DNA of 64,000 nucleotides from Dehalococcoidia bacterium (GCA_965262235.1 OZ253504.1:2731681-2795680); one strand, 5' to 3'. Counted from the stretch's first letter, positions 5,532-40,408 are shown. Numbers and translations are program-made. The notes: generated from the letters alone by a model not told the origin.

Positions 5532-5656
5532 TCCGGGATTGCACTTCTGGTCGGATCGGCTTGGTCACGCGCGTCGTCGTAGGGGGCAACTCCAATGCCA
5601 CGGCTATCATCAGCGGCTAACGGCTCGCAGACCGGTTCGAATTGGAGAGTCATCGC

Positions 5657-6361
5657 ATGCCCGACGGATTCCTGGCTCGCGTGAACTACCTGACCTTCGA
5701 CATCTTCGGCACCGTCATGGACCTGACCGGCAGCCTGGCCGGTCCCGCCGGAGAATTCATGGCGGCCCACGGCTCCGAGATGACGGGCCCCGCGTTTTAC
5801 GCCGAGTGGCGGGCCCGCCAGCGGATTGAACAGTACCAGGACAACCTGTTGATGCTGGGGCACAGTGGCTACCTCGAAACTTGCCGCCGCGCCTTCGTGT
5901 ACTGCCTGAAGAAGCACAACGTAAGCTATACCTCCGTAGCGGTCCAGGAGTTTATGCAGGTGTACCAGGGCCTGCAGCCTTACGCCGACGCCATTGAAGG
6001 GCTGCGGTCGTTGGCGGCGCGTTACAAGCTGGTCGCGCTATCCAACGGGGAGCAGTGGTACTTGGAGGAGTTGTTGGGCAACAACGTCCCGATCACGTTC
6101 GATGCCATCATTTCCGTGGACCAGGTTGGCGCATTCAAGCCGTCCCCCGGGATCTACCGCAAAGCGATCCAGCGCCTGGGCTGCGAGCCCGGCGAGATCA
6201 TGATGGTCGCGGCGCACGCGTTCGATATCCTGGGCGCCCAGACCTGCGGTTTCAAAGGCGCATACGTTAACCGGTACAACCTGCCGACGGAGGACTCGGA
6301 GTACCAGCCCGACATCATCGTCGACGACTTCGTCGAGCTGGCCGCCAAGCTCATGGCGTGA
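5657..6361 (+). CDS. Haloacid dehalogenase type II (HAD superfamily)
   Basis: TFDIFGTVMD motif I, LSNG, FKPSPGIY, MMVAAHAFDILGA. Confidence 0.9.
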   Translation: MPDGFLARVNYLTFDIFGTVMDLTGSLAGPAGEFMAAHGSEMTGPAFYAEWRARQRIEQYQDNLLMLGHSGYLETCRRAFVYCLKKHNVSYTSVAVQEFMQVYQGLQPYADAIEGLRSLAARYKLVALSNGEQWYLEELLGNNVPITFDAIISVDQVGAFKPSPGIYRKAIQRLGCEPGEIMMVAAHAFDILGAQTCGFKGAYVNRYNLPTEDSEYQPDIIVDDFVELAAKLMA

Positions 6362-6437: not shown

Positions 6438-9400
6438 TCAGTTGGAGTCAGGCGTTTCAGGTGTGGTCACGACGACCATCTGGCGACTGGCGATCAGCGC
6501 TTCGTCCGGCGCGAGACCTTCAGGGAAGCGAGTGCCGAAGGGCCGGCTGATGAAGTCGGGCAGGTCCGCGGAAAGGAAGAGCGCCGTCCATACCCCGTCC
6601 AGCCGATGGTAGAACGCATCGATATCAAGGCTTCGGGCACAAGCTTCAAGGTCGCTCACAGTGCCGCCGGCGAACGTGACCTCGCTGAGCCCCTCATCTT
6701 TGAGTCCTTCCAGGCAGGGCGGTTTGCTCACTTGGATCACGTAGCTCTTGGTCCGGCTGCCATCCGCGGACCTGACCACGACGGTGATCGTCGTCTCTGA
6801 TTCCAGCGTCACCTGATGGCCGTTCTCGGGATCGCCGCCCGCGTCGGCCGGTTCGATCGTCACCGTGGCGGCCTCCTGGGTCGCCACAGCCGCGACGATC
6901 GTTGCCGCCAGATCGTAGGCACCGGAGGCCGCGTATTCGAAACGGTTCGACGAGAACTCTTCCAGCTCGAGTTCGTTCAAGCTGAGCGACGCGAGCTGCG
7001 CAATGATCGCGTCGGGCAGGTTGTAGGTGTAGACCTTGTCGTCCTGCTCATCCACCACGTACATGACATCGCCGTCCGACCAGATGCCGCGCGGACTGCC
7101 GTTCCCGGCCTTCAATAGGGAGCGGAACGTGAACTCCAGGTCTTCGTTGCGCGTCAGCGCTTCGCCGTCGACTTCGTATGCAAACAGCCGCTTGGCCCCG
7201 TCGTCGGAGACCCAGAGGGTGTCGCCGTCGGACCAGATGCCGCGCGGGCTGCGGTTGAGCTTGTCCAGCGCGTGCTCGATCAAGAGTTCGCCCGTTGCGA
7301 AGTTGTAGGTGAACAACGAGTCCTGGACGCTGTCGAGCACGTAGATCGTCTCGCCCTCGGACCAGATGCCCCGCGGGTCTCGATTGCGCTCGGCCAGTTC
7401 GACCTCTCGCGCTTCGTCCCGCTCCCCGCTCTCGAGGACGTAGGCGAAAAGCTGATCCTGGCGCTGTCCGCGACCCAGACGGTCTCGCCGTCCGACCAGA
7501 TGCCGTGGGAGAAGCGGTTGCGCCGGTCGAGTTCGAACTCGCGGTCCGGCTGACGCTCCCCGCTCAGCAGGTCGTAGGCGAACACCGAGTCGGCGCCGGA
7601 GGCGGCGTTTTCGAGGACCCACAAGATCTGACCGTCCGACCAGAGACCGGTCGGGATGTCGTTGTCGCGGTCGAGCGACTCGATGTCTCGGGTCACATTC
7701 CAATCGAAGTCGGCGTCTGACGGGATCGGGACCGGCGGTGGACCCCCCCCGCCGCCGCCGCCGCCGCCACCGCCGGATGGCGCCGATGAACTCGGCTTCA
7801 CCGCGTCTTCGACATTCTTGATTTGGACGGACAGGCGATCCGACCACTCCGATGTTTCGTCGAAATCCACCGCACGTAAGCGGAAGTAGTAGACCTTGCT
7901 GTCTGGCAGACCGCTGACGACGGCCCCGGTCCCGTCAAACGCCACTGTGATGCCGTCTCCGGGCAGGTCAATCCACTGGGTACTCTGGAAGTACTGGACC
8001 TCATAGGAGTCCGCGCCGGGGACATAGTCCCACTCCAGATCCACGACGCCTGGCGAGAGTACTTTCCCTCTGGGCCGAAGGTTCGGAACTTCCACGGTGT
8101 GTTCGAGTCGGTTCGAGAGCCGCCGTCCGTCACTGGTGCAGATGGCGCCAACCACCAGACATTTCCGATTATCGGCCAGAACCAGGGTTACGTCCCGAAG
8201 CCGGAAATTCGGGATGACATCAACCACCCACAGGTCCCTGCGGCGGTCCACCCGGCGGACACTCGGCACGCTGCCGCCCGTCACCGTCACCGCGTAGTCT
8301 CTGAAATCCTCGAAGCCGATAGTCAAGCGCTCGCTGAATTGGATCGTGGCACTGAATGGGATGCCGATATGAGTCTCCGGTACCTCTACAAATGCCCCCG
8401 TCAGAGCCTCCGCGCCGGGGTCCTCGATCTCGGTTGGGGAACCGCTGAAAATCCAGGGTCGGGCCTGCTTGATCGCCAGGATATTGTCGCTGGTGATCTT
8501 GAACTCGATCTCGATGGCGAATTGTTCGCCGTCCTCGATGCCGTACAGCTTCGCGAACCGCTCATGGATCGCGGCGAGGTTGCGGCGAAGCTGCCGCAGT
8601 TGATCGTCGGTCATGAGCAACTGGCCCGCTGGGACCTGATTGGAGAGCGCAACAACGGTGTACGTACCGTCCGGGTACAACAGGACTTCCTCCGGCACCG
8701 AGCGGGCGTCGGGGTTGGTGACCAGGTCCTCGCCGATCTGCGAGTTGACGTAGTAGGTCCCTTCCGTGCCGTAGGCGGGATCGATGCTGACTGCCACACC
8801 GTTGACTCGCTCGTCGGAGTAGTTGGGATGCACGAGCACGCCCATCGCCGCCGCCAGGTGGTCGACGCGGTAGAAGTCGCGTTCGATGAAGGCACGGAAG
8901 TTCCAGAGGCTGGCGTAGACCTGCTTGAGCGACTTGGAGATGCCGTCCTCCACGGTCTCCTCGGGATGCTGCGTATTGGAGTCGTACAGTCCGGCGCCGT
9001 TGAAGTTGGGCAGGTCCTCGTTGTTGGTGCTGGACCGGTAGCGCAGCGAGGTGCCCTCCGGGAACGTCGCGTGCATCGCGGTCAGCGCGGTATCAATCCA
9101 GTCCGGCGTCTCCGCCTTCTTGATCTTCTTGCGCAACTTCTTCAGTTCGTCCACCTGCGTGTCGTAGTCAGCCTGGAAATCGGAGTCGGCCAGCATCTCC
9201 TCGATCTCGTCGTAGAGGCCGTTGTGCTTCATGAACTCGTCGTAGAAGTAAAACGGGGCCGCAAACCCGTCGGGCACGGTCCCCGGCGGAAATCCCAGTG
9301 TCCCGATCACGGCCACGTTGGCCGCCTTGACGCCGAAGGAGTCCCAGCCGTCGAAGCCGATCTCGCTGAGAGCGGTGATCGAGGTAGCCGAGAGGTCTCG

Positions 9401-10720
9401 CTGCGGCGTCTGCGGCTCTGTGGGCCGGGAGGAGGCGTAGTGTTCGTCCACCTCCGATTGGCTGGCCGCTCGAATCGAGTAGCCGTCGTCGGTCACCGCA
9501 TAGTGGACGTAACTGTCGATCAGACCGCTGATGGTCTCGTCCTCGAGGGCGCCGGCGATGAAGGCGTTGGGCACGCCGTCCTGCAGCGCACGCAGGTTGA
9601 CATGCGAGAGCGGCGTCTGGGGCACGGTGCTGATGATGCCGGCAACGCGGGGCAACTCATTGGGCAGCGCCTCGTAGATCACCACATCGCGGGAGTGGGG
9701 ACGTTCGTCCGCGTCGAGGCTCCGCAGCAGGCCGTAGCCTTCCCCCGGGTTAAGCGCCAGGAAGTCGGTTTCGCCGAAGACAGACTCGTCGAACACGAGG
9801 TTGACTCGGGGTTCGCGGTACAGGGCCAGGTCGGCCTGGATCTGCGGAAGACGCCGGTTACTTACCCACAGGGCCAGGTTGTCGTCAAGCAGCGGCATGC
9901 TGGCCGCGAGCAGAGTGTAGACGCGCTGCCAGAGTCTCAGGGATGGGCGGCCGGCAACGCTGTAGTAGTAGAGTCCACGGCTACCGTCGGGCGCCACGAG
10001 TTCCGGGTCATAGAAGATCGTGCCCTCTGAGGCTGGTCCCAAAGGATCGAAGTTCAGGGCATCCAGAAAATAGTCGTGATGCAGGAACGTGTTTGTGTTC
10101 TGGAAGTAGAGACTGGGCCGGTCGCTGTCCCTGTCGCCCAGAACGAATTTGATTTGAAATGGGCCGCCGGGATCGGGATAGGCGAGCGTTTCGAAGGTTG
10201 CCCGATCGGGAATCGCTACGGCGCCGTGACTGAGCTCGAGGGCGATGCCGGGGTTCACTGGATTCATGCCCACCGGGTCTCCGAGTTCGGTGATGTCGTC
10301 GATGCAATCGCCGTCGACATCGGCCGGGTCGGCGATGAGGTATTTCTCAACGCGGTAGCGATCGACGGGCAGAGCCGCCACGCTCTCTGCAAGCGTGGTC
10401 GTGCCGTCTTCGCCCAGGACCACCTGGACCGGGGACCTGTACGTCGTGCCATCCACCTCGTGGCTCACGTAGAGGACGAAGTAGTCCGCCGTCGTGGACG
10501 TGACCACGATCGGCACGGCCGTCACAGGGACCGCAACTGGTGTGGGTGGATTGTCCGGGTCCGGACACGTCTGCGCGTGCGCCGGGCTCCCAAAGAGTGT
10601 CATTGCCGCGATGACGGCCGCAGCGACCGAGCACGCGATGAGCGCTGTTGTCAGAGACATCCGTACGCCATCAGAGATGAGTCTGCCTGGTGGTGTCCAG
10701 TTGCGCATCGTCATGGGCAT
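6438..10720 (-). pseudogene. Secreted PEP/pyruvate-binding (dikinase-like) surface protein with conserved C-terminal cassette; single 1-nt deletion at about 7462
   Basis: Signal peptide ending PAHA; QTPLSHVNLRA; RYRSSTNNEDLPNFNGAGLYDS; EIEFKI..KQARPW; Ig-like and FN3 domains; ORFs 7280-11188 and 6438-7847 join if one C is restored (AGC GGC CAG, DSGQD). Start could be 10660, 10714 or 10720. Confidence 0.85.
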
Positions 10721-10968
10721 CCTGAAGGGCTCCAGGAGACGGCGATGGTTCCGGGGGGCTCGCTGGTCAGCGTCAGACCGCTGATGGCGCCATCGGCTTC
10801 CTGAGCCTGGGCAACCGCGAAGACGCCCAGGAAGGTCACAATGGACGGCAGCAGGACCGCCGGCGTCAGGACAGATAGCGGCCTGGACCTTCCCGGGCGC
10901 ACTCCACCTTCGGATGTTCGGTGGAGCCGGCCGGAGGCGCGGGCGGACCGGGTCGTGGACTGCGTCAT
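10711..10968 (-). pseudogene. Orphan N-terminus of a surface protein (signal peptide plus first strands of an FN3-like domain)
   Basis: Hydrophobic stretch ending AVAQA, then GAISGLTLTSEPPGTIAVSW, then a premature end. Confidence 0.5.
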
Positions 10969-13910: not shown

Positions 13911-16900
13911 TCAATTCGCGACAGACACGACTCCGCTCGCGACTAGGGCCGCGCCAGGCGGCAATCCTTCAGCGAAGCGAGTGCGGAAGGGCCGGCTGAG
14001 GAACTCGGGCGCATCGAGGAAGAAGGCGGTCCAGACGCCGCCAGCATGATGGTAGAGCGCACTGACATCGAGGCTGCGGGCGCAGGCTTCGAGCTCGCTG
14101 ACGCTGCCGCCGACGAACGTGACCTCGCTCAGACGCTCGTTGGTGAGTCCGCCCAGGCACGGCGGCTTGCTCACGTCAACCAGATAGGTCGTGGTCCGGC
14201 TGCCGTCCTCGGATGTCACAGTGATGCTGATTGCCGTTTCGGCCTCCAGACTGACCTGATGTCCGTTTTCGGGATCGCCGTCGGCGTCAGTCGGAGTGAT
14301 CGCGACCATCGCTGACTCCTGTGTAGCAAGGGCCTCGGCGGTCGTAACGGTCGCACTGGAGTCGGCCATAGCTGTGTATGCGCGGCGGCCGGATGAGAAC
14401 TCCTCGATCTCGATGTCGCTCAAACTGAGCGAGGCCAGCTGCGCAATGATCGCGTCGGGGATGTTGTACGTGTAGAGCTTGTCGTCCTGCTCGTCCGCGA
14501 CATAGATGACATCGCCGTCCGACCAGATTCCACGCGCATCGCTGTTGCCTGCTTTGAGCAGCGGCCGGAAGCCGAACTCCAGGTCTTCGTTGCGCTTCAG
14601 CGTGTCGCCATCGAGTTCGTAGGCAAACAGCCGCTTGGCGCCGTCGTCGGAGACCCAGAGCGTGACGCCGTCAGACCAGATTCCGCGCGGGCTGCGGTTG
14701 AGCTTGTCGAGCGGGTGCTCGGCCAATAGCTCGCCAGATTCGAGGTCATAGACGAAGAGCGCGTCCTTGACGCTGTCGAGCACATACATCACCCCGCCAT
14801 CGGACCAGATGCCCCGCGGGTCGCGGTTGCGCTCGGCGAGTTCGATCTCCCGCGGTTCGTGCCGCTCTCCGCTCTCCAGGTCGTAAGCGAAGAGCCGGTC
14901 CTGACCGCTGTCGGCGACCCAGACGGTCTCGCCGTCCGACCAGATGCCGTGCGAGAAGCGGTTGCGCGGGTCAAGTTCGAACTCGCGGTCCGGCTGACGC
15001 TCGCCACTTTCCAGCTCATAGGCGAACACGGCGTCGGCGCCGGAGGCGGCGTTTTCGAGGACCCACAGGGTCTGACCGTCCGACCAGAGATCGGTCGGGA
15101 TGTCGTTGTCGCCGTCCAACGATTCGATATCCCGCGTCACGTTCCAGTCGAAGTCCTCGTCCGACGGGATCGGCACTGGAGGCGGTCCGCCGCCTCCACC
15201 ACCGCCGCCGCCACCGCCCGACCCCGACCGCCTGACCACGGAGGGGGCGATCGTCACATCAATGATCACGTCCACCGTGGCGTCCGCGGCAGGGTCGGGG
15301 ATGTAGTTGGCGCGAAAGCCGTCGTGCACGGACACGGTGACCATGTAGGAGCGAGGCTCGAGGACGGCTTTCGTCCGTAGCTGGCCGCTGGCCGGATCGA
15401 TGTCGAAGCGGTCGGCGTCTCTCCCGCCCAGCGAGTAGGTGACCACGTCACCCTCGTCGGCATCGGTCGCGGCCACGGGCGCGCCGATCGACAGGCCGGC
15501 TGCTGTGGCCTGGCCGATGACACGGGTGTACCGCGCCTCGGCGAACGTAGGCTCGGTATTCGTCATGGGTCTGGCTTCGTCGATATGCACCGTCAGCGCG
15601 GCATCGGCACTCTTGTTGCTGCCTCGGCGGTCGGTGTAGGACGCAGTGGCACGCAGATACTGGTCAACGTCGTCGGCGACCGTTGAATACCTGCTTGACG
15701 TTGCGCCCGGAATGTCTATCCAGCTCGACCGGTTTGAGGACCGCGCCCACTGCCAGGTGACGCTGCTCAGACGGACATCGTCATCATCATTGAGGACCGC
15801 GGCAAATGCCGTTTGTGGACTCACCCAGCCCCGCGGCGGGGTGATGCTGACCCGTCCCTCTTCCTCGACGTCCGTCACGGCGACCGTCACGGCGAGGGAC
15901 CCTGCCAGGCCGCCCTCATCGGTGGCGGTAACGGTCACCTGGAAGGTGGTGTTGCTGTCCTCGAAGCTGGGCGGTGTGCGGAAGTGCAGCCGGCCTTGAT
16001 CGGTCATCACGAAGCGGCTGTCATCCACCGACCAGGCGAGCGTGTCGCGCTCGGGATCGGCCCCGGAATAGGACGCGACGGCGGAGCTGTCGTTCTCTCT
16101 GTAGGAGGGAGCGGTATCGCCCGTGACCACGGGCTTCTCGTTGACGTTCGTCACGGTGACGGTCACGCGAATGCGGGCGTCGATCACAGTGTCAGGGTCG
16201 TCGTTCTGGTCCGCGGCGTCGCTGACGGAGACGGTGACGGAGTAGGACCGCTTGCCCTCAAAGTCCAGTTGCACATTTGCCGCCAGCCGCAACTGCCCAG
16301 AGTTCTCGTCGATCGTGAATGAAGCAGCGTCCGATCCGCTGAGCGTGTAGGTCAGGACATCGTTGTTGAAGTCGGTGGCTTCGATAGCGGCTCCGATGGC
16401 GGCGCCGGAGGCGGCATCTTCCGGCACTTCGCGCTGACCGTTCTCCGTGGCCGGGAACGAGGGAGCCGCATTGACTGGTGGCGGTTCGTCGACGGCGCGC
16501 GGCGATATGCCGTGCGCGCTCTTGTTCGGTCCTTCGCCGTCGGTGTACGAGGCCGTTGCTCGAATGTAGCTGCGGACGTCTTCTAACGTTGGCGTGTAAT
16601 CGGCAGACGTGGCGTTCGCAATGTTGACCCAATTGGTCCGGCCGTTGGGCGAGCGGGACCATTGCCAGGTGACGCCGGTAGCGTTGTCGGGATCGCTGAG
16701 TTCCGCGGTCACCGGGACCCGAGCTTTGATCGTCGCGGTAATCGTGGTCAGGGCTACCATCCCCGGCTCTTCCAGGTTTTCGATCGTCACCGTGACACCC
16801 TGGGTGTCGTCCACGGTGGTAGACATGTTGCCCGCGCCGTCCCGCCCGTCGTGAACCTCGACCGTCAACCTGTACTCGGGCTTCAACTCGAAGTCGAGGG

Positions 16901-19900
16901 CCTCGCTGGTTCGCAGTTGACCGGTGGTCTCAACGATGGTGAAGGCGTCGGCGTCCGCGCCGGCCAGGGAGTAGACGAGCTGGTCGTCCTCGGGGTCCTC
17001 GGCTGCGATGGGGGCGCCGATGCTCACGCCCGTCCTGGTGTGCTCGGGCACGCTGCGCCGGCCGTTCTCGGAGGGCGGGAAGTTCGGCTGCCGGTTCTCG
17101 CTGGGGACAGAACTCGCCGTGACCGCCTCCGCGGTCTTGCCGTCGCCGCGGTTGTCCCTGTAGAGGGCGCTGGCTCGCAGGTAGAAGTCCCCGTCGGCGT
17201 TGACTGGCGTGTAGCCGCTGGAATTGGCTCCGGAGATATTGATCCAGCCGCTGCGCCCGTTTTCGGACCGCGCCCATTCCCACGTCGTGCCGCTGATGCT
17301 GCCGTCTCCGTCTTCGAGGTCGGCCCGCAGCGGCGTCCCGATCTCCGGCTCCTCCGCCGAGAGCGTGATGACCCCCGGCTCCTCCACATCCGCGACAGTG
17401 ATTCGGAAGGTCGCGGTGTGGTCGATCTGAGGATCAGTTTCGACGTTGCCGTCAGCGTCTCTGCCGTCATGGATGGTGACGAACAAGAGCTCGAAGCCGG
17501 TTGAGGTCTCGAAGTCCAGCGCTTCGGTGAGCATCAGCTGCCCGGTGGAGGTGTTGACGTCGAACAACCCTTGAATGCCCTGATGGCCGATCCCGAATGT
17601 CACGGAGTCGCCTTCGCGATCTGTGACTTCTATTGGGTTGCCGACGGGCCTGGGGTCGCCACCCTCTTCGATAGTCCCCCTCAGGCCCCCACCGCGGAAG
17701 CGGGGAGGCGCATTGGGGATCGGGTCCGCGGTTACCGCTGCGGTCGCTTCGCTCGCCGCCGACTTCCCACTTCCCCTGCGGTCGATGTAGGGATTCGCAA
17801 CCGCGCGCACCTCATTACCGACGTCGGCATCGATCGGAGTGTAGGCAGTGACAGCGAATCCGGTCTGTCCCGGAAACATAGTTTTGGGAACCCACGTTCC
17901 GCCCGGGACGCGAGTCTCTATGGTCCAACCGGGTCCACCCGTTATAGTAGAAGTATCGATGTCACCGTCCGGGTCTGAAAGCTCAAACGCAATCTGATCC
18001 CCCACCGCCGGGTTGGAATTGCTCACCGATACGACGCCGGCTTCCTCCACATCGGCAACGGTGACAACAACGTCGATGCTGGCGTTGCGGCGAGTTGTGC
18101 CGCTCTCCTCATCGGTGGCGACGACCGTGAACGAGTAGTCGTTGTCCCCGTTGGCGTCGATCGGGCTCTCAAAGCTGGGCGGAGCTTCGAAGCTGACATT
18201 GCCACCGGTATCGATGATGAATCTGCCCCGATCGACGCCGGTCAGCGTCCAGGTCACCCCGCCCTCCTCGTCGCGGGCGGCGTATACCGACACCGTCGCT
18301 GTCCCGTTCTCGTCGTAAGTGACAGTCGCCTGGGGGCTCCCCGTCAGTTCCGGCCTCTCGTTGATGTTGGTGACGCTGATGATGACGGGATATTGCCTGC
18401 GGTTCGAGGGAGATGCGTCGTCACTTGCCTCGACGATGATGTCGTACTCGTTGTTCGAGCCGTCGTCCGCAGCCACCTCGAAGTTGGGCCTGGCGGCAAA
18501 GGACAGGACGCCGGAGGCGGGGTCGATGTCGAAGTCGCCCGCGTCCGTGCCGCCCAGCGACCAGGAAATCACGTCGTCCGGTTCCTCGTCTCGCGCGGTG
18601 TAGGTCTCGACGGTGAGGTCCGGATCGACGGCATCGTATTCAATTTCCGCGAGGCTCGGCGCGTCGCTCCCGCCGGTCACCTCCGGGGTCTCGTTGACGT
18701 TGGTGACGGTGACGGTGACGGGGTAGTCCCTGGTGTTCCGGGGAGATGCGTTGTCACTCGCCTTCACAAGGATCTCGTAGTCGTTGTCTTGGTCGTTGTC
18801 CGCCTGATCCTCGTAGTTGGGCCGGGCGGCAAATGACAGGACGCCGGAGCTGCGGTCGATCCGGAAGTCGCCCGCGTCCGTGCCGCCCAGGGACCAGGCA
18901 ATCGGCTGGTCTTCCTCGTCTCGCGCCGTGTAGGTGCCGACGATGTAACTCATCGCGGTAAGGTCCGCAGCGGCGGTGTCGTACTCAATCTCTGCGAAGC
19001 TTGGCGAGTCGTCCCCGTCCGTGACCGCCGGGGTTTCGTCGAAATTGGTGACCCTGACGGTGACGACCCTCGTCCCGATGGCGTTGCTTTCGCCCGAGCC
19101 GTCATCCGCCTGGACGACGATGTCGTAGACGTTGTTGGAGCCCGTGTCGGCCGGATTCTCAAAGTCGGGCCGGATGTCGAAGTACAACCCTCCGAAGTTA
19201 TCGATGCGGAAGTGTTCACTGTCTGCGCCGCCCAGGGACCATGTGACCGTGTCTCCATCATCGTCAGTGAATGTGTATATGTCGGTGATATAGTCTATAC
19301 CGTCAAGCTCGCTGTCCATCCTATCGAATGCAATCTCCTCGAAGTTCCTGTTGCGTCTCCCACGAAGCACCGGCGTCTCATTGACGTCATCAACCGTCAC
19401 CGTGACTGTCGTCGTGTCGGTCAGGGAGCCATCCGAGACGATCACGGTCACGACGTAGTCATTCATTTCGTCGGCGTCGGCCGCCAGCTCGTAGTTCGGC
19501 GACACGCGGAACGTCAACTCGCCGTCCCCGTCGGCGTTCTTCGTGATCCTGAAGTCGCCGGTGTCCGGACTGACGGTGCTGTCTGGGTCCAGCGACCAGG
19601 TCAGCGTGGTCGAGGCGTCCACGTCGGACGCCTCGAAGGCGGCGATCGTCTCTGTGGTCGGCGTGTTCTCGTCTTTGCTGACGCTGCTTGGGCCGGCGTC
19701 AATCGTCGGCGCCTCATTCACGTTCATCACGGTCACGGCGACGCTTTGCGTGTCGCTGAGACCGCCGGCGTCGGTGACCTTGACCGTCGCGTTGTAGACA
19801 TTGTTTTCGCCGATGTCGGCCTTGGTCTCAAAGTCCGGCGCGCTAATGAACGTGAGCACGCCCGTCGAGGAGTCGATCCGGAACTTGCTTCCGTCGTCGG

Positions 19901-22900
19901 CGTCCTCCACCGACCAACTTCGTGTGTCGGACGCGTCCACATCGGATGCCGTGTAGGTGGCGACCGCGGTGCTGTTCTCTGCGACACTCCTGGTGGTGGG
20001 ACCGCCCGTGATCGTGGGCGCTTCATTCACAGGCTCCACTGTCACGGTGACGGCCATCGTGGCGGGCAGTGAACCATCCGAGACCTTGACCGTCACGTTG
20101 TAGTCATTCATTTCGTCGGCGTCGGCCGGCAGCTCGTAGTTCGGCAACACCCGGAACTTCAGCTCGCCCTCCCCGTCGGCGTTCTTCGTGATCCTGAAGT
20201 CGCCCCGGTCGGCGCCTTCCAACGACCAGGTCAGGGTGGTCGAGGCGTCCACATCGGAGGCCTCGAAGGTGGCGATCGTCTCTGTGGTCGGGGTGTTCTC
20301 GTCTTTGCTGACGCTGCTTGGGCCCGCGTCAATCGTCGGCGCCTCGTTGACGTTCGTCAGGCTGATCGTCACGGCGATGCTGTCATCGTCGTTGATGTCG
20401 GTGTTGCCGGCGGAGTCCTTGCTGTCGCGCACGGTCACGGTCACGCTGTAGCTGTTGTCGCCTTCGAAGTCATAAGTCTCACCGGCAATTGTTCGTATCT
20501 GTCCGTTCGACGGGTCGACCGCAAAGGACGAACGGTCGGCGCCGCTCCACGAATAGGTAAGCGTGTCGTTGTCGCCGTCAGTAGCCCTGACCGGCGTCCC
20601 GACGTTCGTGGCAGTGAGTCTGTTCTCCTGGACGCTGCGATCGGCCGTGTCGCCCTCGGTGAATTCCGGTTCGGCGTTTCCGGCGCCGATCTGGGCGGTC
20701 ACGCCGTTGGCGGACTTGCCCGAAGCTTGCGGGTCGGTGTACGACGCAGTGGCTCGCACGTATTTGGTCACGTCGCCGGCCACCAGCGTGTAGCTGTTGC
20801 TCGTCGCGCCGCTCAGGTTGGAGAAGGGCCCGCTTTCCGCATCCGCCCGCGCCCACTGCCACGAGACGGCGGTAGGGGTTCCGTCTATGTCGGTCACCGA
20901 CGCGGTTAACGTCGATCCTCCCGAAGTCGTGCCTGTAATCGCGACCGTGCCGTCCTCGTCGACGTTTGTGAGGCTGATCGTCACGGCGATGCTGTCATCG
21001 TTACTGCTGTTGGTGTTGCCGGCGGAGTCCTTGTTGTCGCGCACGTTGACGGTCACGCTGTAACTGCTGTCGTTCTCGAAGTTGTAGGTGACCCCGGACT
21101 TGGTCTGGATCTGGCCGCTCGTCGAGACAATGGTGAAGGACGACGCGTCGCCGCCGCTCAGCGAGTAGGTCAGCGTGTCGTCGTTGCCGTCTGTAGCGCT
21201 GACGGCAGACCCGACACTCGTTCCTGTCGAGCTATTCTCCTCGACACTGCGCATGGCCGTGTCGCCCTCGTCGAATTCCGGCTCGGCGTTTCCGCTTCCG
21301 ATCTGGGCGGTCACGGCGCTGGCGGACTTGCCCGGTCCTTCAGGGTCGGTGTACGAGGCTGTGGCCCGCAGGTATTTGGTCACGTCGGCGGCCACGGTCG
21401 TGTAGCCGGCGGACGTCGCCCCGCTGATGTTGGAGAACGACCCGTCTACAGTATCTCCCCGCGCCCACCGCCACGTGACTCCGGTGGGTGTCCCGTCCAG
21501 GTCGGTCAACGATGCCGTCAACACCGATCCTCCCGAGGTCCCGCCGTCAATCGTGACCGTGCCGTCCTCGTCGACATTCGTGATATTGATGGTCACGGCG
21601 ATGCTGTCATCGAATAAACGGTCGGCCGTGAAGCTGGGGTCGAAACTGTCGCTCACTTCCATGGTGAAGCTGTAGCTGCTCTTGTCCTCGAAGTTGTAGG
21701 TGTGGTCGGGCGAGATCGCCACCTGGCCGGTGGCAAGGTTGAATCTGAAGGAGGGCGCGTCCGCGCCTGTCCCCCCGTAGCGCAGCTCGTGGCTTTCAGG
21801 ATCCGTAGCCGAGACTGGCGTACCGATAGCCGCAAACCGAGCGGCGTCCTCAGGCACTTCGCGGGTGGCTGAGTCGCCTTCGTCGAATGTCGGTGCGAAG
21901 TTGCCTACCGCGATCTGGGCCGTCGTGGCGTTGGCGGTCTTGCCCGGTCCCTGTGGGTCGGTGTACGACGCCGTGGCCCGCAGGTACTTGGTCGCCTCGC
22001 CGGCCTCGAGCATGAAGGCGGCGGAGGTCGCCCCGCTAATGTCGGAGAAGGTCCCGTCTTCCGTATCACCCCGCGCCCACTGCCAGGTGACCTCGGAGGG
22101 TGTCCCGTCCAGGTCGGTCAACGATGCCGTGAGCGTCGATCCGGTCAAGGCGAAGCCCTCAAACGTGACCGTGCCCTCCTCGTCGACGTTCGTGAGGGTG
22201 ATGGTCACTGTGATCGCGTCGTCATAGTCGGGGTCGGGCGCGCCAACGCCGTCCTTGCCGTCTGTTACCTCAACGACTACCGTAAAAGTGTTGTCGCTCT
22301 CGAAGTCGAAGGTTATCCCGGGTCGGGTCTTCAACTGCCCGGTACCACTGTCGATAATGAAGTTTACACTTTCTACGCCGGTCACAATGAAGTTCAGCGT
22401 ATCGTCCGGGTCCGGGTCTGTCGCCGTGAACGCCGTGCCGATGTTCGTATCTGCCACGCTGTTCTCGGGTAAGCTGCGCGCGGCCGTATTGCCCTCGTCG
22501 AATGTCGGCTCCGTGTTCGGGTTGGCTCTGACGGTCGGTCCGCCGTTGTCTTCCTTGTCATTCGGCGGCGCGGGCATGGTCACCGCCTCGCTCGGGGCAG
22601 ACGCAACCAGCTCACGATGCTGTGCATCGTCGTTGAATGTCACGACCCCGCTGACGCCGGCGCCCGTATCGGCAGCGGTCAGCATGTAAGCCTCACCGGT
22701 CGCCCCAACGATCGGTTGGCCGCCGCGGTTCCACGAAGAGCAGTAGCCGGCGTTGGTCAGTCCGTCGCTGTCGCTGAGGCCGGAGAGATCCAGCGTCAGG
22801 GTTCCGCCTACCAGCGCGTCGCCGCTGATCGTGGGCACGCCGCCGGCCGCAGTATTCTCCGGCGCCGTCGACGGCGTCGTCGGCGCGATGACCGCGTTCG

Positions 22901-23303: not shown

Positions 23304-23916
23304 GGTCGCGCCTCCCAGCGGGGACAGCCCAGCGTTCCGTGGGCGGGGCCGTGGCGAAGAGAAGGAGCGGTCGGACCGGGCGCCAGCCGGGCACACGGGG
23401 CCAACCTGGTGCTGACCGTTGGCGTCAACACGACCAGTGCGGGACGGTCATAAAGATCAAGACAGTGATACATCAGGGTGGGACTTTCGGACGATCTGAA
23501 GGTCGAACGAACCGATACTACCACGATTCAATGTGACCACAATGGCAGGCATGGGCTACCCAGGTCCCTGTCGTTTCCCTCCGGAGTGAAGCATCCGCAG
23601 GCTGAAGGGGTTCCAGCTCGGCCCGCGACAGCCCTCGCTCAGGAGCTCCTGGCGGCCTATCCACGTCGTTCTCACCAGATGGGAGGAGCACATTGCAGCG
23701 GCGTCAAAGTCCGGCCCGCCGCACGCCCGCTGCAGCTGTGATCGCGTCTTGATCGAGACGGGCGAGCGGACGCGTCTGAGGCGGGCAATCAATGCTGATC
23801 AAACCATGCGCGTGAGTTCACCATCCGCCTTTATGTGGAGACGGGCCCGCTGCTGCCGGTCACTCCTGAAGGGTGTTGCGCTGCAATCCAGGCGTTCGTC
23901 GGGAGGGCGAACCTGG

Positions 23917-33034: not shown

Positions 33035-36000
33035 CTAGTTAGCGTCGTTCGGGGTCGTACCCGGTCCCGGTCCAGGTTCACGCTTGGCGACCAGGCTTTC
33101 TGGGGCCGGCAGGCCGTTGGCGAATCGGTTGTAGAACAGCTGGTTGAGGAACGCTGGTGCGCCAAGGAAGAGTCCTGCCCAGCCTTCCTCGTCGTAGTGG
33201 TAGACCGCACTCACCCCGAGCCCTCTGGCGCAGGTGACCAGCTCGTCGACGCTGCCTCCGGTGTAGCTGACCAACGACAACCGCTCCCCGGTCAGTCCTG
33301 CGAGACAGCGGGCAAGCGCAACTCGGTAGACCCGCGTTCGGCTACCGTCCTCCGAGCGAACGGTGATTGTGACCTCGCCGCCATCCCCAACGCTGAGCTG
33401 ATGACCACTGTCCGGGGTGTCATCCACGTCCGCCGGCCGAATCGACACTGTCGCGCCGCTGTGTGTGGGCTTGGCCGTCACGGTCGTCTCGGTCAGGTCA
33501 TAGCCCACGAGCGCGCGATAGCCGATCCGCACGGGCGAGAACTCGCCGTACTCGATGCCGCTCAGCGTCAGCTCGGAGAGGCGGGCGTCGATCGCGTCGG
33601 GCATGTTGTAGGTGTAGACCCTGTCGTCCTGCTCATCGACGACGAAGATCACGCCACCGTCGGACCAGATGCCACGCGGATTGCCGTTGCCCGCCTTGAG
33701 CAGGGGTTTGAAGCCAAACTCCTCGCCCTCACGACGAGTCAGACTCTCGCCCTCCAAGCGGTAGGCGAAGAGGCGCTTGGCGCCGTCGTCCGAGACCCAC
33801 AGCGTGACGCCGTCGGACCAGATGCCGCGGGGACTGCGGTTGAGCTTGTCCAACGGGTAGCGGCTGAGTAGTTCACCGCTGCTCAGGAGGTAGCTGAAGA
33901 GCTGGTCCTGAACGCTGTCGAGCACGTATACCGTTTCCCCGTCCGACCAGACGCCGCGTGGGTCCCGATTGGCCTCGTGCAGTTCCAGCTCCCGCTCCTC
34001 CAGCCGCTCACCGCTCTCGAGGTTGTAGGCGAAGAGTCGGTCCTGCCCGCTGTCGGCAACCAGGACGGTCACGCCGTCGGACCAGAGACCGTGTGAGAAG
34101 CGGTTGCGCGCGTCGAGCGTCAACCCCTCCTCCGGCAGCCGCTCACCGCTCTCGATCTCGTAGGCGAAGATGGCGTCCGGACCGCTCTCGGCGTTCTCAA
34201 GCACCCAGAGTCCCGCGCCATCGGACCAAAGGCCTGTCGGAGTGTCGTTGTCTCGATCCAGCGCCTCAATGTCTCGGGTGACGTTCCACTCGAAGTCCTT
34301 CTCGGACGGGATCGGCACCGGAGGAGGACCGCCTCCGCCGCCCCCGCCCCCTCCACCAGATGCAGCACTGCTGGTAACGGATATGACTCGTTCCTTTGGA
34401 GGAACGATCAGCACTTCGGTCACGACGCTGATGGTGACCACGACGCTGCTCGACCGGCCGGTCAGGTCTCGTGCCGTGACGACCACGGTGTAGGTGTCCT
34501 TGGTCTCTTTGACCAACGGAGCGACCGTCTGTAGCTGACCTGATGCGGCGTTGATCATGAACGAGTCCTCGTCCGCGCCACTGAGCGTGTGCGTCACCTG
34601 GTCGCCGGCGTCATGGTCATCCGCGGCAACCGGATCGCCAACGTCGGTTCCTGCGGGCTTGTTCTCAAGCACCAGTCGAGTCGCGGCGCCGGGCGGGAAC
34701 ACCGGCGGCTCGGCCGCGTCGCTGACAACCACCGCGATCGCCCGCGACGCGCTGGCCCCCAACGAATCACTGGCAACGATCTTGAAGTTGTGGACGGAGC
34801 GTGTCTCGAAGTCCAGAGCGTCTCGGACTTGGAGCTGACCGGTGGATCCGTCAATTTGGAACCAATCGGAGTCCTCGCCGCTCAACGACCAGTAGATGCC
34901 GCTGCGGTGCTCAGGGTCGGTGGCGACAAACGGCGCACCCAGGATCGTTCCCGGCGCAGCGGTCTCGGCAACCGCGCGCTGCGCCACGGTCGTATCCGCA
35001 AACGCTGGAGGGTCGTTCGCCGGGCGATCGCCGAAGACCCAAGGCCGGGCCTGCTTGATTGCCAGGACGTCATCGCTGGTGAACTTAAACTCAATCTCCA
35101 TCGCGAACTCTTGATCGTCAGCGGGGTCGTACAGGGTCTCGAATTCGTCATGGATCACGGTCAGTTGCGGGACCAAGGCGTCGAGACGGTCTTCGTGCAT
35201 CAGGAGCACGCCAGGGTCCACCTGGTTAGAGGTGAACGCCACGATCGTCCAGCAACAACTCTTGGCCGTCAGGATCTCTTCCGCCACCGATTGGGCTTCG
35301 GGATTGGTCACAAGATCCTCGCCCAGCTGGGAGTTGATGTAGTACGCATCATCGAAACCGTACAACGGATCAAAGCTGACCGCGACGCCGTTGACCAGCT
35401 CGTTCTGGTAACTGGGATGGATCAGGATGCCCATCGCCGCCACCAGGTGGTCAATGCGATGAAAATCGCGCTCCACGAAGGCGCGGAAGTTCCACATGCT
35501 CGCGTAGACTTCCTTGAGCGACTTGGCCAGATCCTTTTCATCCTCGCTTGGCTTTTGGCTCTTGGAGTCGTACAGTCCCGCGCCGTTGAAGCCCGGCAGG
35601 TCCTCGGTGTTGGTGCTGGAGCGGTAGCGCCGGTTGATCCCCTCGGGAAACGACTGATTCATCTCGACCAAGGCTGCGACGATCCATTCAGGCGTCTCCG
35701 CATCCTCGATGTCCTTGCGCAACTTCTTCAGCTTCTTCGCCTGGACCGCGTAGTCGTTCTGAAACTCGGCATCAGCCAGCATCGTGCGAATGCGGGAATA
35801 GAAACCATTGTGCCGCATGAACTCGTCGTAGAAGTAGAAGGGGATGGCGAACCCGTCGGGCGCCGTGCCGCTGGGCAGACCGATCGAGCCCAACACGGCC
35901 ACGTTCGTCGCCTTGACTCCGAACGCTGTCCAGTCGTCGAACTCGATCTCGCTGAGCGGAGTGATCGCCGTCACCGCCAGGTCGCGCCGCGGCGTCTGCG

Positions 36001-37666
36001 GATGCGCTGGCCGGGCAGCATCATAGTGCGCATCGACCTCCGCACGGCTGGCCGCGCGCAGCGTCCAGCCGAGCTTCGTCACCTCGTAGTAGACGTAGTT
36101 GCCGATCAGCGCGCTGATCTCGTCATTCTCAAGCGCATCGCGAATATAGGCATTGGGCACGTCGTCCTGCATGGCGCGCAGGTTGACGTGGGCCAGCGGC
36201 GTCTGCTGGACGGTGGTGATGATCCCGGCGACCTTCGACAAGTCGTTGGGCAGCGACTCGAAGAGCACCACGTCACGCGGGTTCGCTCGTCCGTCCGGTT
36301 CCATGACGCGCAGCAGGCCATAGCCTTCCCCCAGGTTCATCGGGGCGAAGTCGGCTAACCCGTGGATGTCGTTTGGCACCAGGACGTGAATTCGGGAATT
36401 GTTGAGCTGATCCGTGACCCATTGGTGGTCGAGCAGATCGGCGTCACTGATAAAGTAGGACAGGTTGTCCGTGACCATCGGCATGCTCGCTGCGAGCGTT
36501 GTATAGGTCCGGTGCAGAAAGCTGAACGGATGTAGTGGCCAGTCGAGCCTGAAATAGTATACGCCCTGACTGCCATCGGGAGCGGGCAGCCGCGGCTGAA
36601 ATAGCATCTCGCCAATATCTCTGATGCCGGGTAACGGATGCTCAAGACCGGCGGCAGCGCGGAAACTCAAATGGGTGGGGTGCGTATTCATGTTCGCAAA
36701 ATGCAGACGCGGCCGGTCGCCATCCATGCCGGAGACGAAGAAATTGACGCTCAGAGTGCCGTCGTGAGCCTCAAACGCGAGCGTTTTGAACGTCTCATGA
36801 TCGGGGATGGCCAACACGCCATCGGACCTCGCGATACTCGCGGCGGGATGCAGCGGGTTCATCGCTGTGGGGCTGGCGAGCTCAGTGATGTCGTCGATGC
36901 AGTCCCCGTCGATGTCGGCCGGGTCAGCGATTTGGTACTGTTCGACTCGATAGCGTTCCTGCGCCAACGCCTCGATATTCTCTTCCAGGGTCGTTGTCCC
37001 GGCCTCGCCCCGCTTGACCAACACGGGCGACTCAATCGTGGTCCCATCGACGTCGTGACTCACGTAGAGCACGAAGTAGTCAGCGGTGGTGGAGGCGACC
37101 ACGATCGGCGCCGCCGTCACGCTGACATCGGTCGGCTCGGGCGGATCTTGATTTCCGCCGCAGGTGGTCGCCCGCGCAGATTGCAGCGGTTCCACGGACG
37201 CACCTTGCTCAGACTGGTCAATCGGCTGCGTGACCAGTGTTGGCGCTGAAACCGGCGCCGCCGGAGTGTCGGCATCGGTGTAGCCCGACTGCGGCGAGGC
37301 GCCGTGCGCATTGACCGCTTTAATCCGGTAGACGTAGCGGGTCTCTGCCGAGACCGTGGCGTCGCGGTAGCTGGTCTGCGCCGAGCCGGTGTTCTCGTTG
37401 ATCGTGATGAAATGGCCGGGCGCATGCCGGTCCGTCTCACGCCGCAGGATGATGTAGTGAGTGATCGACTCGTCGCTGCTGCCGTCCCAGCTCAAGGTGA
37501 CCAGATCGTGGGCGGCGATGCTCGTGAGGCCCGTGGGCCGTGCCGGAGCCAGGGTCCCGTCGGCCGACGCCGTTCCGGGGACGATTGCAATCAGCAGCAG
37601 GGCGGCGGCAAGCAGCAGGGCGGCTCCCCGTCGTGCTGCGACATCCAACCGCCATCTCGTCGCCAT
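33035..37666 (-). CDS. Secreted PEP/pyruvate-binding (dikinase-like) surface protein, paralog 2 (1543 aa), with FN3, cadherin and C-terminal cassette
   Basis: Signal peptide ending GTASA; QTPLAHVNLRA; RYRSSTNTEDLPGFNGAGLYDS; EIEFKF..KQARPW; two cadherin units; poly-Gly hinge. Confidence 0.9.
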   Translation of the reverse strand: MATRWRLDVAARRGAALLLAAALLLIAIVPGTASADGTLAPARPTGLTSIAAHDLVTLSWDGSSDESITHYIILRRETDRHAPGHFITINENTGSAQTSYRDATVSAETRYVYRIKAVNAHGASPQSGYTDADTPAAPVSAPTLVTQPIDQSEQGASVEPLQSARATTCGGNQDPPEPTDVSVTAAPIVVASTTADYFVLYVSHDVDGTTIESPVLVKRGEAGTTTLEENIEALAQERYRVEQYQIADPADIDGDCIDDITELASPTAMNPLHPAASIARSDGVLAIPDHETFKTLAFEAHDGTLSVNFFVSGMDGDRPRLHFANMNTHPTHLSFRAAAGLEHPLPGIRDIGEMLFQPRLPAPDGSQGVYYFRLDWPLHPFSFLHRTYTTLAASMPMVTDNLSYFISDADLLDHQWVTDQLNNSRIHVLVPNDIHGLADFAPMNLGEGYGLLRVMEPDGRANPRDVVLFESLPNDLSKVAGIITTVQQTPLAHVNLRAMQDDVPNAYIRDALENDEISALIGNYVYYEVTKLGWTLRAASRAEVDAHYDAARPAHPQTPRRDLAVTAITPLSEIEFDDWTAFGVKATNVAVLGSIGLPSGTAPDGFAIPFYFYDEFMRHNGFYSRIRTMLADAEFQNDYAVQAKKLKKLRKDIEDAETPEWIVAALVEMNQSFPEGINRRYRSSTNTEDLPGFNGAGLYDSKSQKPSEDEKDLAKSLKEVYASMWNFRAFVERDFHRIDHLVAAMGILIHPSYQNELVNGVAVSFDPLYGFDDAYYINSQLGEDLVTNPEAQSVAEEILTAKSCCWTIVAFTSNQVDPGVLLMHEDRLDALVPQLTVIHDEFETLYDPADDQEFAMEIEFKFTSDDVLAIKQARPWVFGDRPANDPPAFADTTVAQRAVAETAAPGTILGAPFVATDPEHRSGIYWSLSGEDSDWFQIDGSTGQLQVRDALDFETRSVHNFKIVASDSLGASASRAIAVVVSDAAEPPVFPPGAATRLVLENKPAGTDVGDPVAADDHDAGDQVTHTLSGADEDSFMINAASGQLQTVAPLVKETKDTYTVVVTARDLTGRSSSVVVTISVVTEVLIVPPKERVISVTSSAASGGGGGGGGGGPPPVPIPSEKDFEWNVTRDIEALDRDNDTPTGLWSDGAGLWVLENAESGPDAIFAYEIESGERLPEEGLTLDARNRFSHGLWSDGVTVLVADSGQDRLFAYNLESGERLEERELELHEANRDPRGVWSDGETVYVLDSVQDQLFSYLLSSGELLSRYPLDKLNRSPRGIWSDGVTLWVSDDGAKRLFAYRLEGESLTRREGEEFGFKPLLKAGNGNPRGIWSDGGVIFVVDEQDDRVYTYNMPDAIDARLSELTLSGIEYGEFSPVRIGYRALVGYDLTETTVTAKPTHSGATVSIRPADVDDTPDSGHQLSVGDGGEVTITVRSEDGSRTRVYRVALARCLAGLTGERLSLVSYTGGSVDELVTCARGLGVSAVYHYDEEGWAGLFLGAPAFLNQLFYNRFANGLPAPESLVAKREPGPGPGTTPNDAN

Positions 37667-39734: not shown

Positions 39735-40408
39735 CAGTGGCTTCCACAACACAGATCAAGGTCTTGCTCGTCGACGACCATCAGATCGTCAGGGAAGGCC
39801 TCCAGCAGCTACTCGAGATGACGGGCGACTATCAGGTGGTCGGCCAGGCCGGCGACGGGCACGAAGCGTTGGCCGCCGCGAAGGAACTGACGCCTGACGT
39901 GATCGTGATGGACGTCTTGATGCCCAACATGGACGGCGTCCAGGCCTGCCGCGAGATCCTTGAGCAGCTGCCCGATACCCGGGTCCTGATCCTCACGGCC
40001 TCCAATCAGGATGAAGCAGTGATCGACGCCGTGGCGGCCGGCGCAGCCGGCTATCTGCAGAAGTTCTCCGGCCGGGACGAGTTCCTCTCAGCCTTGCGAG
40101 AGGTCGCCGACGGACGATCGCGGATCCCGCTGAACGTCGTCAAACGCGCATTCGACTCGATCCGCAATGCGCCCGCAACCCCAGCCAAACCACAAAGCGT
40201 GACACTCACTGCTCGCGAGGAGGAGATCCTCACGCATTTCGCCCGGGGAAACTCCTACGCGCAGGTGGCCAAAATTGCGGGCAACAGTCCCATTACGATC
40301 AGAAATTCCATCTACCGCATTCAAGACAAGCTGGGCGTCAAGACCAAGCAGGAAATCGTCGTCTGGGCCGTACGCAACGGGCTGTTGGACGCCCCAGCAG
40401 GCTGCTGA
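39731..40408 (+). CDS. NarL/FixJ-family response regulator (REC plus LuxR HTH)
   Basis: VLLVDDH, DVIVMDVLMP, LTAREEEIL...IQDKLGVKTK; 4-nt overlap with the kinase gene. Confidence 0.95.
   Translation: MTVASTTQIKVLLVDDHQIVREGLQQLLEMTGDYQVVGQAGDGHEALAAAKELTPDVIVMDVLMPNMDGVQACREILEQLPDTRVLILTASNQDEAVIDAVAAGAAGYLQKFSGRDEFLSALREVADGRSRIPLNVVKRAFDSIRNAPATPAKPQSVTLTAREEEILTHFARGNSYAQVAKIAGNSPITIRNSIYRIQDKLGVKTKQEIVVWAVRNGLLDAPAGC

Follow-up and report, generated by a model that had tools for sequence, protein, structure and literature searches.

By the textbook view, dikinases of the phosphoenolpyruvate (PEP) synthase/pyruvate phosphate dikinase (PPDK)/glucan, water dikinase (GWD) superfamily work in the cytoplasm or in plastids, and ATP is not normally expected beyond the bacterial membrane. 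In PEP synthase (PpsA) and PPDK, which are cytoplasmic, the ATP-grasp domain stands first and is accompanied by a PEP/pyruvate-binding TIM barrel (PF02896) and by PF00391. GWD1 carries its phospho-His segment directly N-terminal to a C-terminal PPDK_N ATP-grasp domain and has no TIM barrel; phosphoglucan, water dikinase (PWD) is grouped with GWD as a like system. In this study, a gene with the latter arrangement (paralogue 1) was analysed in a 64,000-nt stretch of DNA from a Dehalococcoidia bacterium (GCA_965262235.1, OZ253504.1:2731681-2795680; hereafter the window), together with a second copy in the same window (paralogue 2) and a large family of prokaryotic homologues. We favour, at slightly better than even confidence, the reading that these proteins are exported, surface-tethered His-relay phosphotransferases of this superfamily, with the GWD-type domain order. 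The superfamily itself is known; what is new here is a set of its dikinases that combine the GWD-type order with a new N-domain and a predicted extracytoplasmic location. To our knowledge this is the first prokaryotic group with the His-then-ATP-grasp order of GWD.

The open frame of paralogue 1 extends from 11188 to 7280 on the minus strand of the window, and its sequence offers a plausible start at the ATG at 10720 or, more likely, at the ATG at 10660. After translation from 10720, the motifs VAGIISTVPQTPLSHVNLRA (9587-9646), GVKAANV (9314-9334), FAAPFYFY (9242-9265) and RSSTNNEDLPNFNGAGLYDS (8978-9037), all on the minus strand, were found precisely where an earlier reading made from the DNA alone (the sequence-only reading) had put them, as was the candidate catalytic His codon, CAT, at 9602-9604 (minus; His373 counted from ATG 10720, His323 in core numbering). 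This His and the residues around it did not vary in 42 aligned homologues, LSH[VI]NLR was present in 73 of 77 genome loci, and PLSHVNLRA was kept exactly in 74 of 80 metagenome relatives with just 44-59% overall identity. Conservation across homologues, genome loci and such divergent relatives indicates that the motifs are not due to chance. The enzyme had previously been placed at 8450-9780, an interval that does hold the His segment and the ATP-grasp domain, but the conserved unit starts about 500 bases farther upstream, near 10264. In an alignment of 82 sequences this unit comprised core residues ~105-708, while the first ~100 residues were clade-specific.

The ATP-grasp nucleotide-binding domain (PPDK_N; 8447..9382, minus) gave the sole Pfam match in the enzyme core (PF01326, aa 461-756, E=1.4e-23; 84 bits against a cutoff of 27), and PF02896 had no Pfam match in either paralogue. 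The domain matched PEP synthase 2ols at 1.8e-9 among PDB sequences and, by BLASTP, E. coli PpsA at 9e-14; its match to GWD stood at 7e-5 with 23% identity. Among the NCBIfam models, PEP_synth (~1e-19), rifampin phosphotransferase (RPH) and PigC/RedH all matched below threshold and over the ATP-grasp part only. The PEP_synth score lies far under its curated cutoff because the ATP-grasp domain alone matches, and the RPH model NF041857 reached 48.7 bits against a cutoff of 999 across the same part; no NCBIfam model dedicated to the family was found. A Foldseek search with the AlphaFold2 (AF2) model of the whole core retrieved RPH 5hv6 (4e-9), 2ols (5e-9) and HpeI 9goj (5e-8), again for the ATP-grasp domain only. 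Four motifs, G413-V414-K415, R510-Y-R512-S-S-T-N-N-E-D-L-P, E687-x-E689-F-K and K-Q702-A-R704-P-W, were invariant or nearly so in the 42 homologues: R510-P521, E687 and E689 did not vary, Q702 and R704 were conserved in at least 90%, and the motifs were still conserved in the 82 sequences down to 44% identity. We take K415, R510/R512, E687/E689 and Q702/R704 to be the counterparts of PPDK K22, R92, D321/E323 and Q335/R337. Judged by these sequence features, the ATP-grasp domain is genuine and looks active.

The His-bearing segment (9395..9805, minus), a putative phospho-histidine swivel domain delimited by motif conservation, hhalign and AF2/Foldseek, contains in this order NPGEGYG, LPNELPRVAGIIS, QTPLSHVNLRA and GVPNAF. 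As a reference for comparison, a GWD C-terminus was used as bait and a cluster look-up yielded the full-length Olea europaea protein XP_022892008.1 (P0416), named GWD, in which Pfam finds Ig_N_CWD1, DUF7067, GWD1_pHisD (1041-1154) and PPDK_N. Its catalytic region, VVAVLTPDMPDVLSHVSVRARNSKVCFATC, has as its counterpart RVAGIISTVPQTPLSHVNLRALQDGVPNAFI in paralogue 1, and since it reads VLSHVSVRARN, the GWD motif given in the sequence-only reading is real. By hhalign, His373 aligns with GWD His1103 (Olea numbering), and the distance from this His to G[AV]K is 90 residues in both proteins. Comparison of the His segment with the GWD His-domain alignment gave P=0.0049 over 46 columns, His on His, a score reached by three of 300 column shuffles. 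When the ATP-grasp domain was included and a 148-row alignment of GWD C-termini was used, the probability was 96.6% (P=6e-10) over 397 colinear columns, in which NPGEGYG fell on SPVEAIG, LSHVNLRA on LSHVSVRA, and His on His. The AF2 model of the segment showed strand-hairpin, strand, strand, loop-His-helix and strand, which is the swivel-domain order. Whether it would model as a swivel domain had been posed beforehand as a check, and the answer is mixed: RPH (5hv2, 121 columns) was the top Foldseek match, but the probability was only 0.54 and the model is weakly swivel-like. The next matches, with template modelling scores >0.3, were AF0055, MccF, RraA and AcnX, which we take to be swivelling beta/beta/alpha folds in the sense of SCOP; none was significant alone. 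We consider it probable, but not proven, that the His segment is homologous to phospho-His domains.

The GWD-type arrangement is established: as the sequence-only reading had it, the His motif (aa 359-378) precedes the ATP-grasp domain (aa 461-756), with PF01326 the only Pfam match and no TIM barrel. GWD1 and the family further share GAGLYDS and V(W/Y)AS(K/L)WN.RAF, and the LSHVSVRA of GWD1 corresponds to LSHVNLRA in the family. On the other side, PF22973, matched by Olea GWD at 1.3e-52, is unmatched by the family, and the element RS.S..EDL...GAGLYDS follows the VWAS motif in GWD1, whereas the family has it in the canonical position before VWAS. The CFATC redox disulfide of GWD is absent, with GVPNAF at the equivalent place, and instead of the N-terminal starch-binding CBM45/Ig_N_CWD1 repeats (PF23166, 3.3e-68), DUF7067 and long helical region of Olea GWD, the family has an unrelated N-domain of 150 aa. 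GWD is a plastidial enzyme of plants and algae, whereas the family is prokaryotic and predicted to be exported. Because the ATP-grasp domain is nearer to PEP synthase (9e-14) than to GWD (7e-5), the proteins form a distinct family with the same domain permutation and not a set of GWD orthologues. The likeness to GWD proposed earlier accordingly extends to the order, the LSHVSVRA-type motif, the 90-residue spacing and the colinear profile alignment, but not to PF22973 or to the affinity of the ATP-grasp domain. That interpretation as a whole is partly supported: domain order, GWD motif and export have stood, the assignment of the His domain is weaker than supposed, and phosphorylation of glycans or host matrix stays conjectural. 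Many short metagenome contigs (P0310-P0399, e.g. P0380, HYA32169.1) encode fragments 56-66% identical to the plant GWD C-terminus, one of them deposited as a protein of a Thermodesulfovibrionales metagenome-assembled genome (MAG). These fragments may stem from algae or protists whose DNA is present in the metagenomes, or they may be genuine bacterial genes resembling GWD.

The other members of the superfamily differ from the family in various ways. PpsA and PPDK have the best sequence match to the family ATP-grasp domain and the same catalytic motifs, and a PpsA/PPDK-like canonical pattern, PG...G, a hydrophobic strand and (T/S)H....A....P, could be recognised by eye in the family His segment, but their domain order is the reverse. 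RPH (PDB 5hv1, 5hv2, 5fbs) is the top structural match to the ATP-grasp domain. RPH and the family are both three-part enzymes in which a dedicated acceptor-binding domain, a candidate one in the family, takes the place of the TIM barrel. In RPH, which is cytoplasmic, the order is ATP-grasp domain, rifampin-binding domain and C-terminal His domain, and no similarity to the rifampin-binding domain was detected in the family. The structural match to HpeI is significant as well, and HpeI/HpeH and phenylphosphate synthase show that this type of ATP-grasp domain serves varied small-molecule acceptors (phenols). In these cytoplasmic systems, the His domain and the ATP-grasp domain are on separate subunits encoded in catabolic operons, whereas no such operon context was seen around the family loci.

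Upstream of the His segment lies a conserved alpha/beta N-domain of ~150 aa (9806..10264, minus), delimited by residue conservation. K141-F142, Y155-F156-x-N158, H165, F168, G183, P194, G196, G199 and P226 were conserved in at least 95% of the 82 sequences, which go down to 44% identity. The domain had no Pfam match at E<=10 and no match among PDB sequences; Foldseek with the AF2 whole-core model gave weak MHC-platform-like matches (E 0.1-0.7), from which no interpretation is drawn. We regard it as a candidate acceptor-binding domain.

Export of the family is well supported by its sequences. In paralogue 1 a signal peptide, MSLTTALIACSVAAAVIAAMTLFGSPAHA followed by QTCP (10574..10660, minus), was read by eye from its hydrophobic core and the subsequent AHA-Q, and the arrangement is alike in homologues (e.g. 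ALA/QACPG in P0009). By a hydrophobicity heuristic, 172 of the 239 family proteins with a complete N-terminus had a strongly hydrophobic 12-mer within the first 57 residues. Relatives carry Por_Secre_tail or CHU_C domains of the type IX secretion system (T9SS; P0247, P0257, P0264), SLH (P0231), three CWB2 repeats (P0245, P0260) or PKD (P0218), others have fn3, cadherin, SLH or Big-type domains, and Pfam finds Cadherin-like and fn3 domains in the dikinase paralogues of the window. The occurrence of four unrelated anchoring systems on one core is a strong argument for an extracytoplasmic location, and the EF-hand-like loop and conserved Cys pair described below were also counted toward export. 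The secretion and surface display proposed in the sequence-only reading are in this way placed on firmer ground, with signal peptides, T9SS tails and SLH and CWB2 anchors, than that reading could have known. The position of the core varies between the N-terminus, the middle and the C-terminus of proteins of 426-3769 aa. The ~600-aa core is a portable unit to which lineages attach their own secretion and anchoring modules; in this genome the attached module consists of poly-Gly, WSDG repeats, a cadherin-like domain and a C-terminal domain. On two Bacteroidota-type contigs (L165, 1465-5364; L166, 4225-8124), the gene of a T9SS-tailed dikinase is preceded by genes for a T9SS-tailed protein of 232 aa and an inorganic pyrophosphatase, and the 232-aa secreted protein could be a partner of the dikinase.

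The family is very large. A word-indexed search yielded 1730 proteins at E<=1e-5 among 8000 scored candidates, and the 119 matches listed besides the window protein were 63-78% identical to it over 69-100% of the 725-aa core. None of the proteins listed carries a name and no paper on the family was found, in agreement with the sequence-only reading, which knew of no characterised function; literature searches on sponges, the dikinase domain, T9SS, the GWD motif and Poriferisodalis likewise found nothing on it. An exhaustive search of 1.84 billion representatives at 50% identity returned 6066 at E<=1e-3 and 1867 at E<=1e-30. All of the 150 top-ranked representatives were family members, most of them spanning the full core with few fragments, and this set stops short of the score range in which GWD and PEP synthases are expected. 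In three proteins, P0136 (3227 aa), P0137 (2025 aa) and P0008 (1171 aa), the core profile matched two separate stretches, which suggests two dikinase cores per polypeptide.

In GTDB species genomes, the best 77 loci showed 57-71% identity, often with several copies per genome. They belong to MAGs of Dehalococcoidia/Chloroflexota, Acidimicrobiia (Ca. Poriferisodalis, Ca. Aldehydirespirator), Acidobacteriota/Terriglobia, Latescibacterota, Binatia and Thermodesulfobacteriota, with the addition of one Cenarchaeum chromosome. This set of MAG taxa is typical of high-microbial-abundance sponges, and the MAG family members are probably sponge-associated. On the Cenarchaeum sp. chromosome (OZ242221.1; L037, 6576-13058), an open reading frame (ORF) of 2160 aa contains a core 66% identical and has a GC content similar to that of its flanks. 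Cenarchaeum is known as a genus of sponge symbionts, and this copy is a possible case of gene transfer between domains. Across phyla and an archaeon, identities lie almost uniformly at 60-70%, which points, at the level of sequence comparison, to horizontal spread within the symbiont community. A confinement of the family to sponge symbionts was considered and rejected: JGI (including deep-water sets), ENA and TARA ocean metagenomes, a TARA scaffold among them, contain relatives 44-59% identical in which PLSHVNLRA and RSSTNNEDLP.F.GAGLY are intact.

From the ATP-grasp fold with its catalytic residues, the invariant His, the colinearity with GWD and the export signals, we infer the following course of the reaction. 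The ATP-grasp domain, C-terminal in the core, would bind a nucleotide triphosphate and its beta-phosphate would pass to invariant His373, predicted at the start of a helix in the small swivel-like domain just upstream. This phospho-His domain would then swing to the ~150-aa N-domain, with its invariants K141, Y155, N158 and H165, which would stand in for the TIM barrel of PPDK or the carbohydrate-binding region of GWD. There the phosphate would be handed to an acceptor. The leading guess, made purely by analogy with GWD, is a hydroxyl group of some glycan or matrix component outside the cell, and the enzyme might in that case phosphorylate glycans or host matrix.

Several points weigh against this proposal. 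No ATP source is known outside the cytoplasmic membrane, which leaves the proposed chemistry without an obvious donor. The evidence consists of sequence comparison and predicted models, and the AF2 models are of moderate quality, with a pLDDT confidence score of 65 for the whole core and of 69 for the His segment. The Foldseek match of the latter to RPH 5hv2 is not significant (E=0.26), and the matched part of RPH is unspecified. With HMMER, neither PF00391 nor PF22973 was detected in the His segment at E<=10 in paralogue 1 or at E<=1 in paralogue 2. Comparison by hhalign with nine canonical swivel domains (E. coli PpsA, PtsI, PtsP and FryA; PDB 2ols, 9dae, 8a8e, 2e28 and 5hv2) gave a probability of 0.3%, not significant either locally or globally. 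That null result is weak evidence, since the positive control, the GWD His domain against the same set, reached just 18% (P=0.0013), the alignments being thin and the power low. A family profile of the His segment had zero matches to PDB sequences at E<=10. No neighbouring gene conserved across phyla was found in the neighbourhoods of the fetched loci, which leaves no clue to the substrate, and paralogue 1 is frameshifted between the enzyme core and the C-terminal anchor.

The difficulty over an extracellular nucleotide source keeps three other explanations alive. The same chemistry could take place inside another cell, the core being an effector or toxin that is delivered on an adhesin-like stalk to a sponge cell, a phagosome or a competitor, where the ATP of the target would be used to phosphorylate a target molecule or be burnt to AMP and two phosphates. 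Such an effector would solve the ATP problem, and it would suit the several dikinase copies per symbiont genome, the crowding of the window with giant cadherin, LRR and Calx-beta surface proteins, and the Latescibacterota loci, where the core is at the extreme C-terminus after repeats of 1000-2100 aa, as in polymorphic toxins. We nevertheless consider it unlikely: most members have the core at the N-terminus or in the centre, ahead of cell-wall or T9SS anchors that would retain the protein on its producer, no translocation domain was recognised, and no conserved immunity-like neighbour gene was found in the fetched loci. Alternatively, the enzyme may act on extracellular ATP without an organic acceptor, as an 'ATP, water dikinase' or pyrophosphohydrolase that yields AMP and two phosphates, in the service of phosphorus scavenging in seawater or of quenching ATP danger signalling in an animal host. 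Seawater and animal tissues both contain dissolved ATP, members of the family turn up widely in ocean metagenomes, TARA and deep-water JGI sets among them, MAG genomes of taxa typical of sponges carry several copies, and every residue of the ATP site is invariant. Ambient ATP is only nanomolar, however, the same task is already performed by simpler enzymes (5'-nucleotidases and apyrases, for instance), and the presence of a 150-aa N-domain whose K, Y, N and H residues do not vary is hard to explain if there is no specific acceptor, so that this role seems to us rather improbable.

A further explanation dispenses with the His relay. The ATP-grasp domain would act alone as a ligase or kinase, or would serve as a nucleotide-sensing or nucleotide-binding module; the His motif would play a structural part or coordinate a metal, and the resemblance to GWD would be convergent or too weak to count. 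This would fit the failure to detect PF00391 and PF22973, the null comparison with canonical swivel profiles and the lack of a significant fold match for the His segment by itself. We hold it to be the least probable of the explanations given here. The family and GWD have the motif LSHV-x-[LV]-RA in common, at the identical distance of 90 residues from G[AV]K, the profile alignment with GWD is colinear, and the motif is invariant over a far more divergent background. Moreover, all characterised PPDK_N-type ATP-grasp domains known to us work with a His carrier. An exported His-relay phosphotransferase is the reading preferred here.

Outside the conserved unit, the first part of mature paralogue 1 is a beta-rich module in which two Cys are conserved and an EF-hand-like loop is present (10265..10570, minus; AF2 strands). 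The loop, D-x-D-x-D-x-x-x-D-x-x-E (10286-10321, minus; D84, D86, D88, D92 and E95 in core numbering), had D86, D88, D91, D92 and E95 invariant in the 42 aligned homologues, with Cys2 present in 34 and Cys89 in 39 of them. From the EF-hand consensus of the sequence, calcium binding by this module may be expected. The module is restricted to the MAG (sponge-type) clade; ocean relatives start with a signal peptide and have EF-hand pairs in its place. Just upstream of paralogue 1, a small ORF (10711-10968, minus) encodes a signal peptide and the first fn3 strands and then stops. It looks like the remnant of an ancestral fn3-core fusion of the kind seen in paralogue 2. The closest relative (P0002, L078) likewise has its fn3 part split off as a separate, overlapping ORF.

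After the ATP-grasp domain, an fn3-like stretch was recognised by eye in paralogue 1. It is followed by a poly-glycine linker of 11 Gly and PPPVPIPS-DADFDWNVTRDI (PPPVPIPS-DADFDWNV), which open a shared C-terminal module (7742..7774, minus), and by 'GIWSDGxTxWV' repeats downstream of the linker. A probable 1-nt deletion lies inside these WSDG repeats (7455..7460, minus): tblastn with paralogue 2 passed from frame -1 to frame -3 at 7457-7460, where the sequence reads GCC AGG ATC in place of the expected GCC CAG GAT (AQDQLFAY). The frame of paralogue 1, as it stands, terminates at the stop codon at 7280-7282. The rest of the module, comprising WSDG repeats, a Cadherin-like beta-sandwich (~6723-6995) and a Cys-containing terminal domain of ~90 aa, is out of frame (6438..7460, minus). 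It lies in an ORF at 6438-7847 that matches PF12733 at 9.7e-11 and is 58% identical to residues 1208-1530 of paralogue 2. The deletion either truncates paralogue 1 ahead of its anchor module, and could then be a real pseudogenising mutation, or is an assembly error.

Paralogue 2 (33035..37666, minus; Pfam and translation) is intact with 1543 aa and is composed of a signal peptide, fn3, the core, two cadherin domains, poly-Gly, WSDG repeats, a Cadherin-like domain and a C-terminal domain. Its core is 55.6% identical to that of paralogue 1, and its His motif, LAHVNLRA, was the sole other copy in a six-frame motif scan of the window. Divergent from it in the window is a two-component system, assigned from Pfam HATPase_c and ORFs, with a membrane histidine kinase (38358-39734, plus) and a LuxR-type response regulator (39731-40408, plus). 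In 11-12 MAG loci of Dehalococcoidia (L002, L011, L012, L013, L040, L044, L047, L058, L061, L062, L071, L072), a homologous kinase/regulator pair lies next to the dikinase gene. The recurrence of this adjacent system suggests that expression of the dikinase is regulated, perhaps by a dedicated pair, and that the window comes from a Dehalococcoidia genome. At the other side of the region, a gene for a HAD-family hydrolase (5642-6361, plus) adjoins the end of paralogue 1. The product could be a phosphatase; it has no signal peptide, and the gene was not seen again next to the dikinase at other loci. Canonical swivel-domain genes were sought in the fetched loci as well, and none was found.

The remainder of the window is dominated by predicted giant surface proteins and is, as judged from its sequence, a dense island of eukaryote-like adhesin genes. 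These include a protein of 6807 aa (41295-61718, plus) with at least seven cadherin-like domains, fn3, Calx-beta and many WSDG-type repeats, a protein of 3161 aa (13911-23396, minus) with nine cadherin domains, and a protein of 2508 aa (25197-32723, plus) with LRR_8, fn3, Calx-beta and a SWM repeat. The poly-Gly/PPPVPIPS junction of paralogue 1 is common to paralogue 2 and the 6807-aa protein, and all three have the same end module (6438-7774, 33035-~34300 and ~60400-61718). It is made up of poly-Gly, PPxxPVPS, (D/E)F(D/E)WNVxRDI, five or six 'GIWSDGxTxWV' repeats, a Cadherin-like beta-sandwich and a ~90-aa domain with two Cys, the pattern of which is C..GL...L..V.Y.GG.V..L..CA. At its C-terminus (13911-~14900), the 3161-aa protein has at least repeat-type and Cadherin-like Pfam matches in common with this module. 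No Pfam model covers the shared module in full; it probably serves these proteins in common for anchoring or secretion.

Taken jointly, the observations could be read as an unrecognised class of extracellular phosphotransferases, a wider picture that we offer as doubtful though not far-fetched. Displayed on the surface, such His-relay dikinases would draw on extracellular nucleotides, from host tissue, particles or lysing cells, to phosphorylate extracellular polymers or host matrix. They would have spread horizontally via symbionts, probably those of sponges and including an archaeon, and may represent the prokaryotic stock of the plant and algal GWD/PWD arrangement.

GWD and PWD still have no experimental structures (2026 review, PMC12892837), so that a soluble bacterial core of ~600 aa could become a structural model for that arrangement. 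Throughout this very large family no part of the ATP site varies, nor does the candidate catalytic His, yet every member examined is predicted to be exported. This leaves two possibilities, either an unrecognised extracellular phosphorylation chemistry in marine bacteria or a new type of effector. With several copies per genome, core identities of 57-71% over unrelated phyla and an archaeon, and fusion of the core to adhesin-like modules that are also found on other giant surface proteins, the family is a candidate symbiosis factor.

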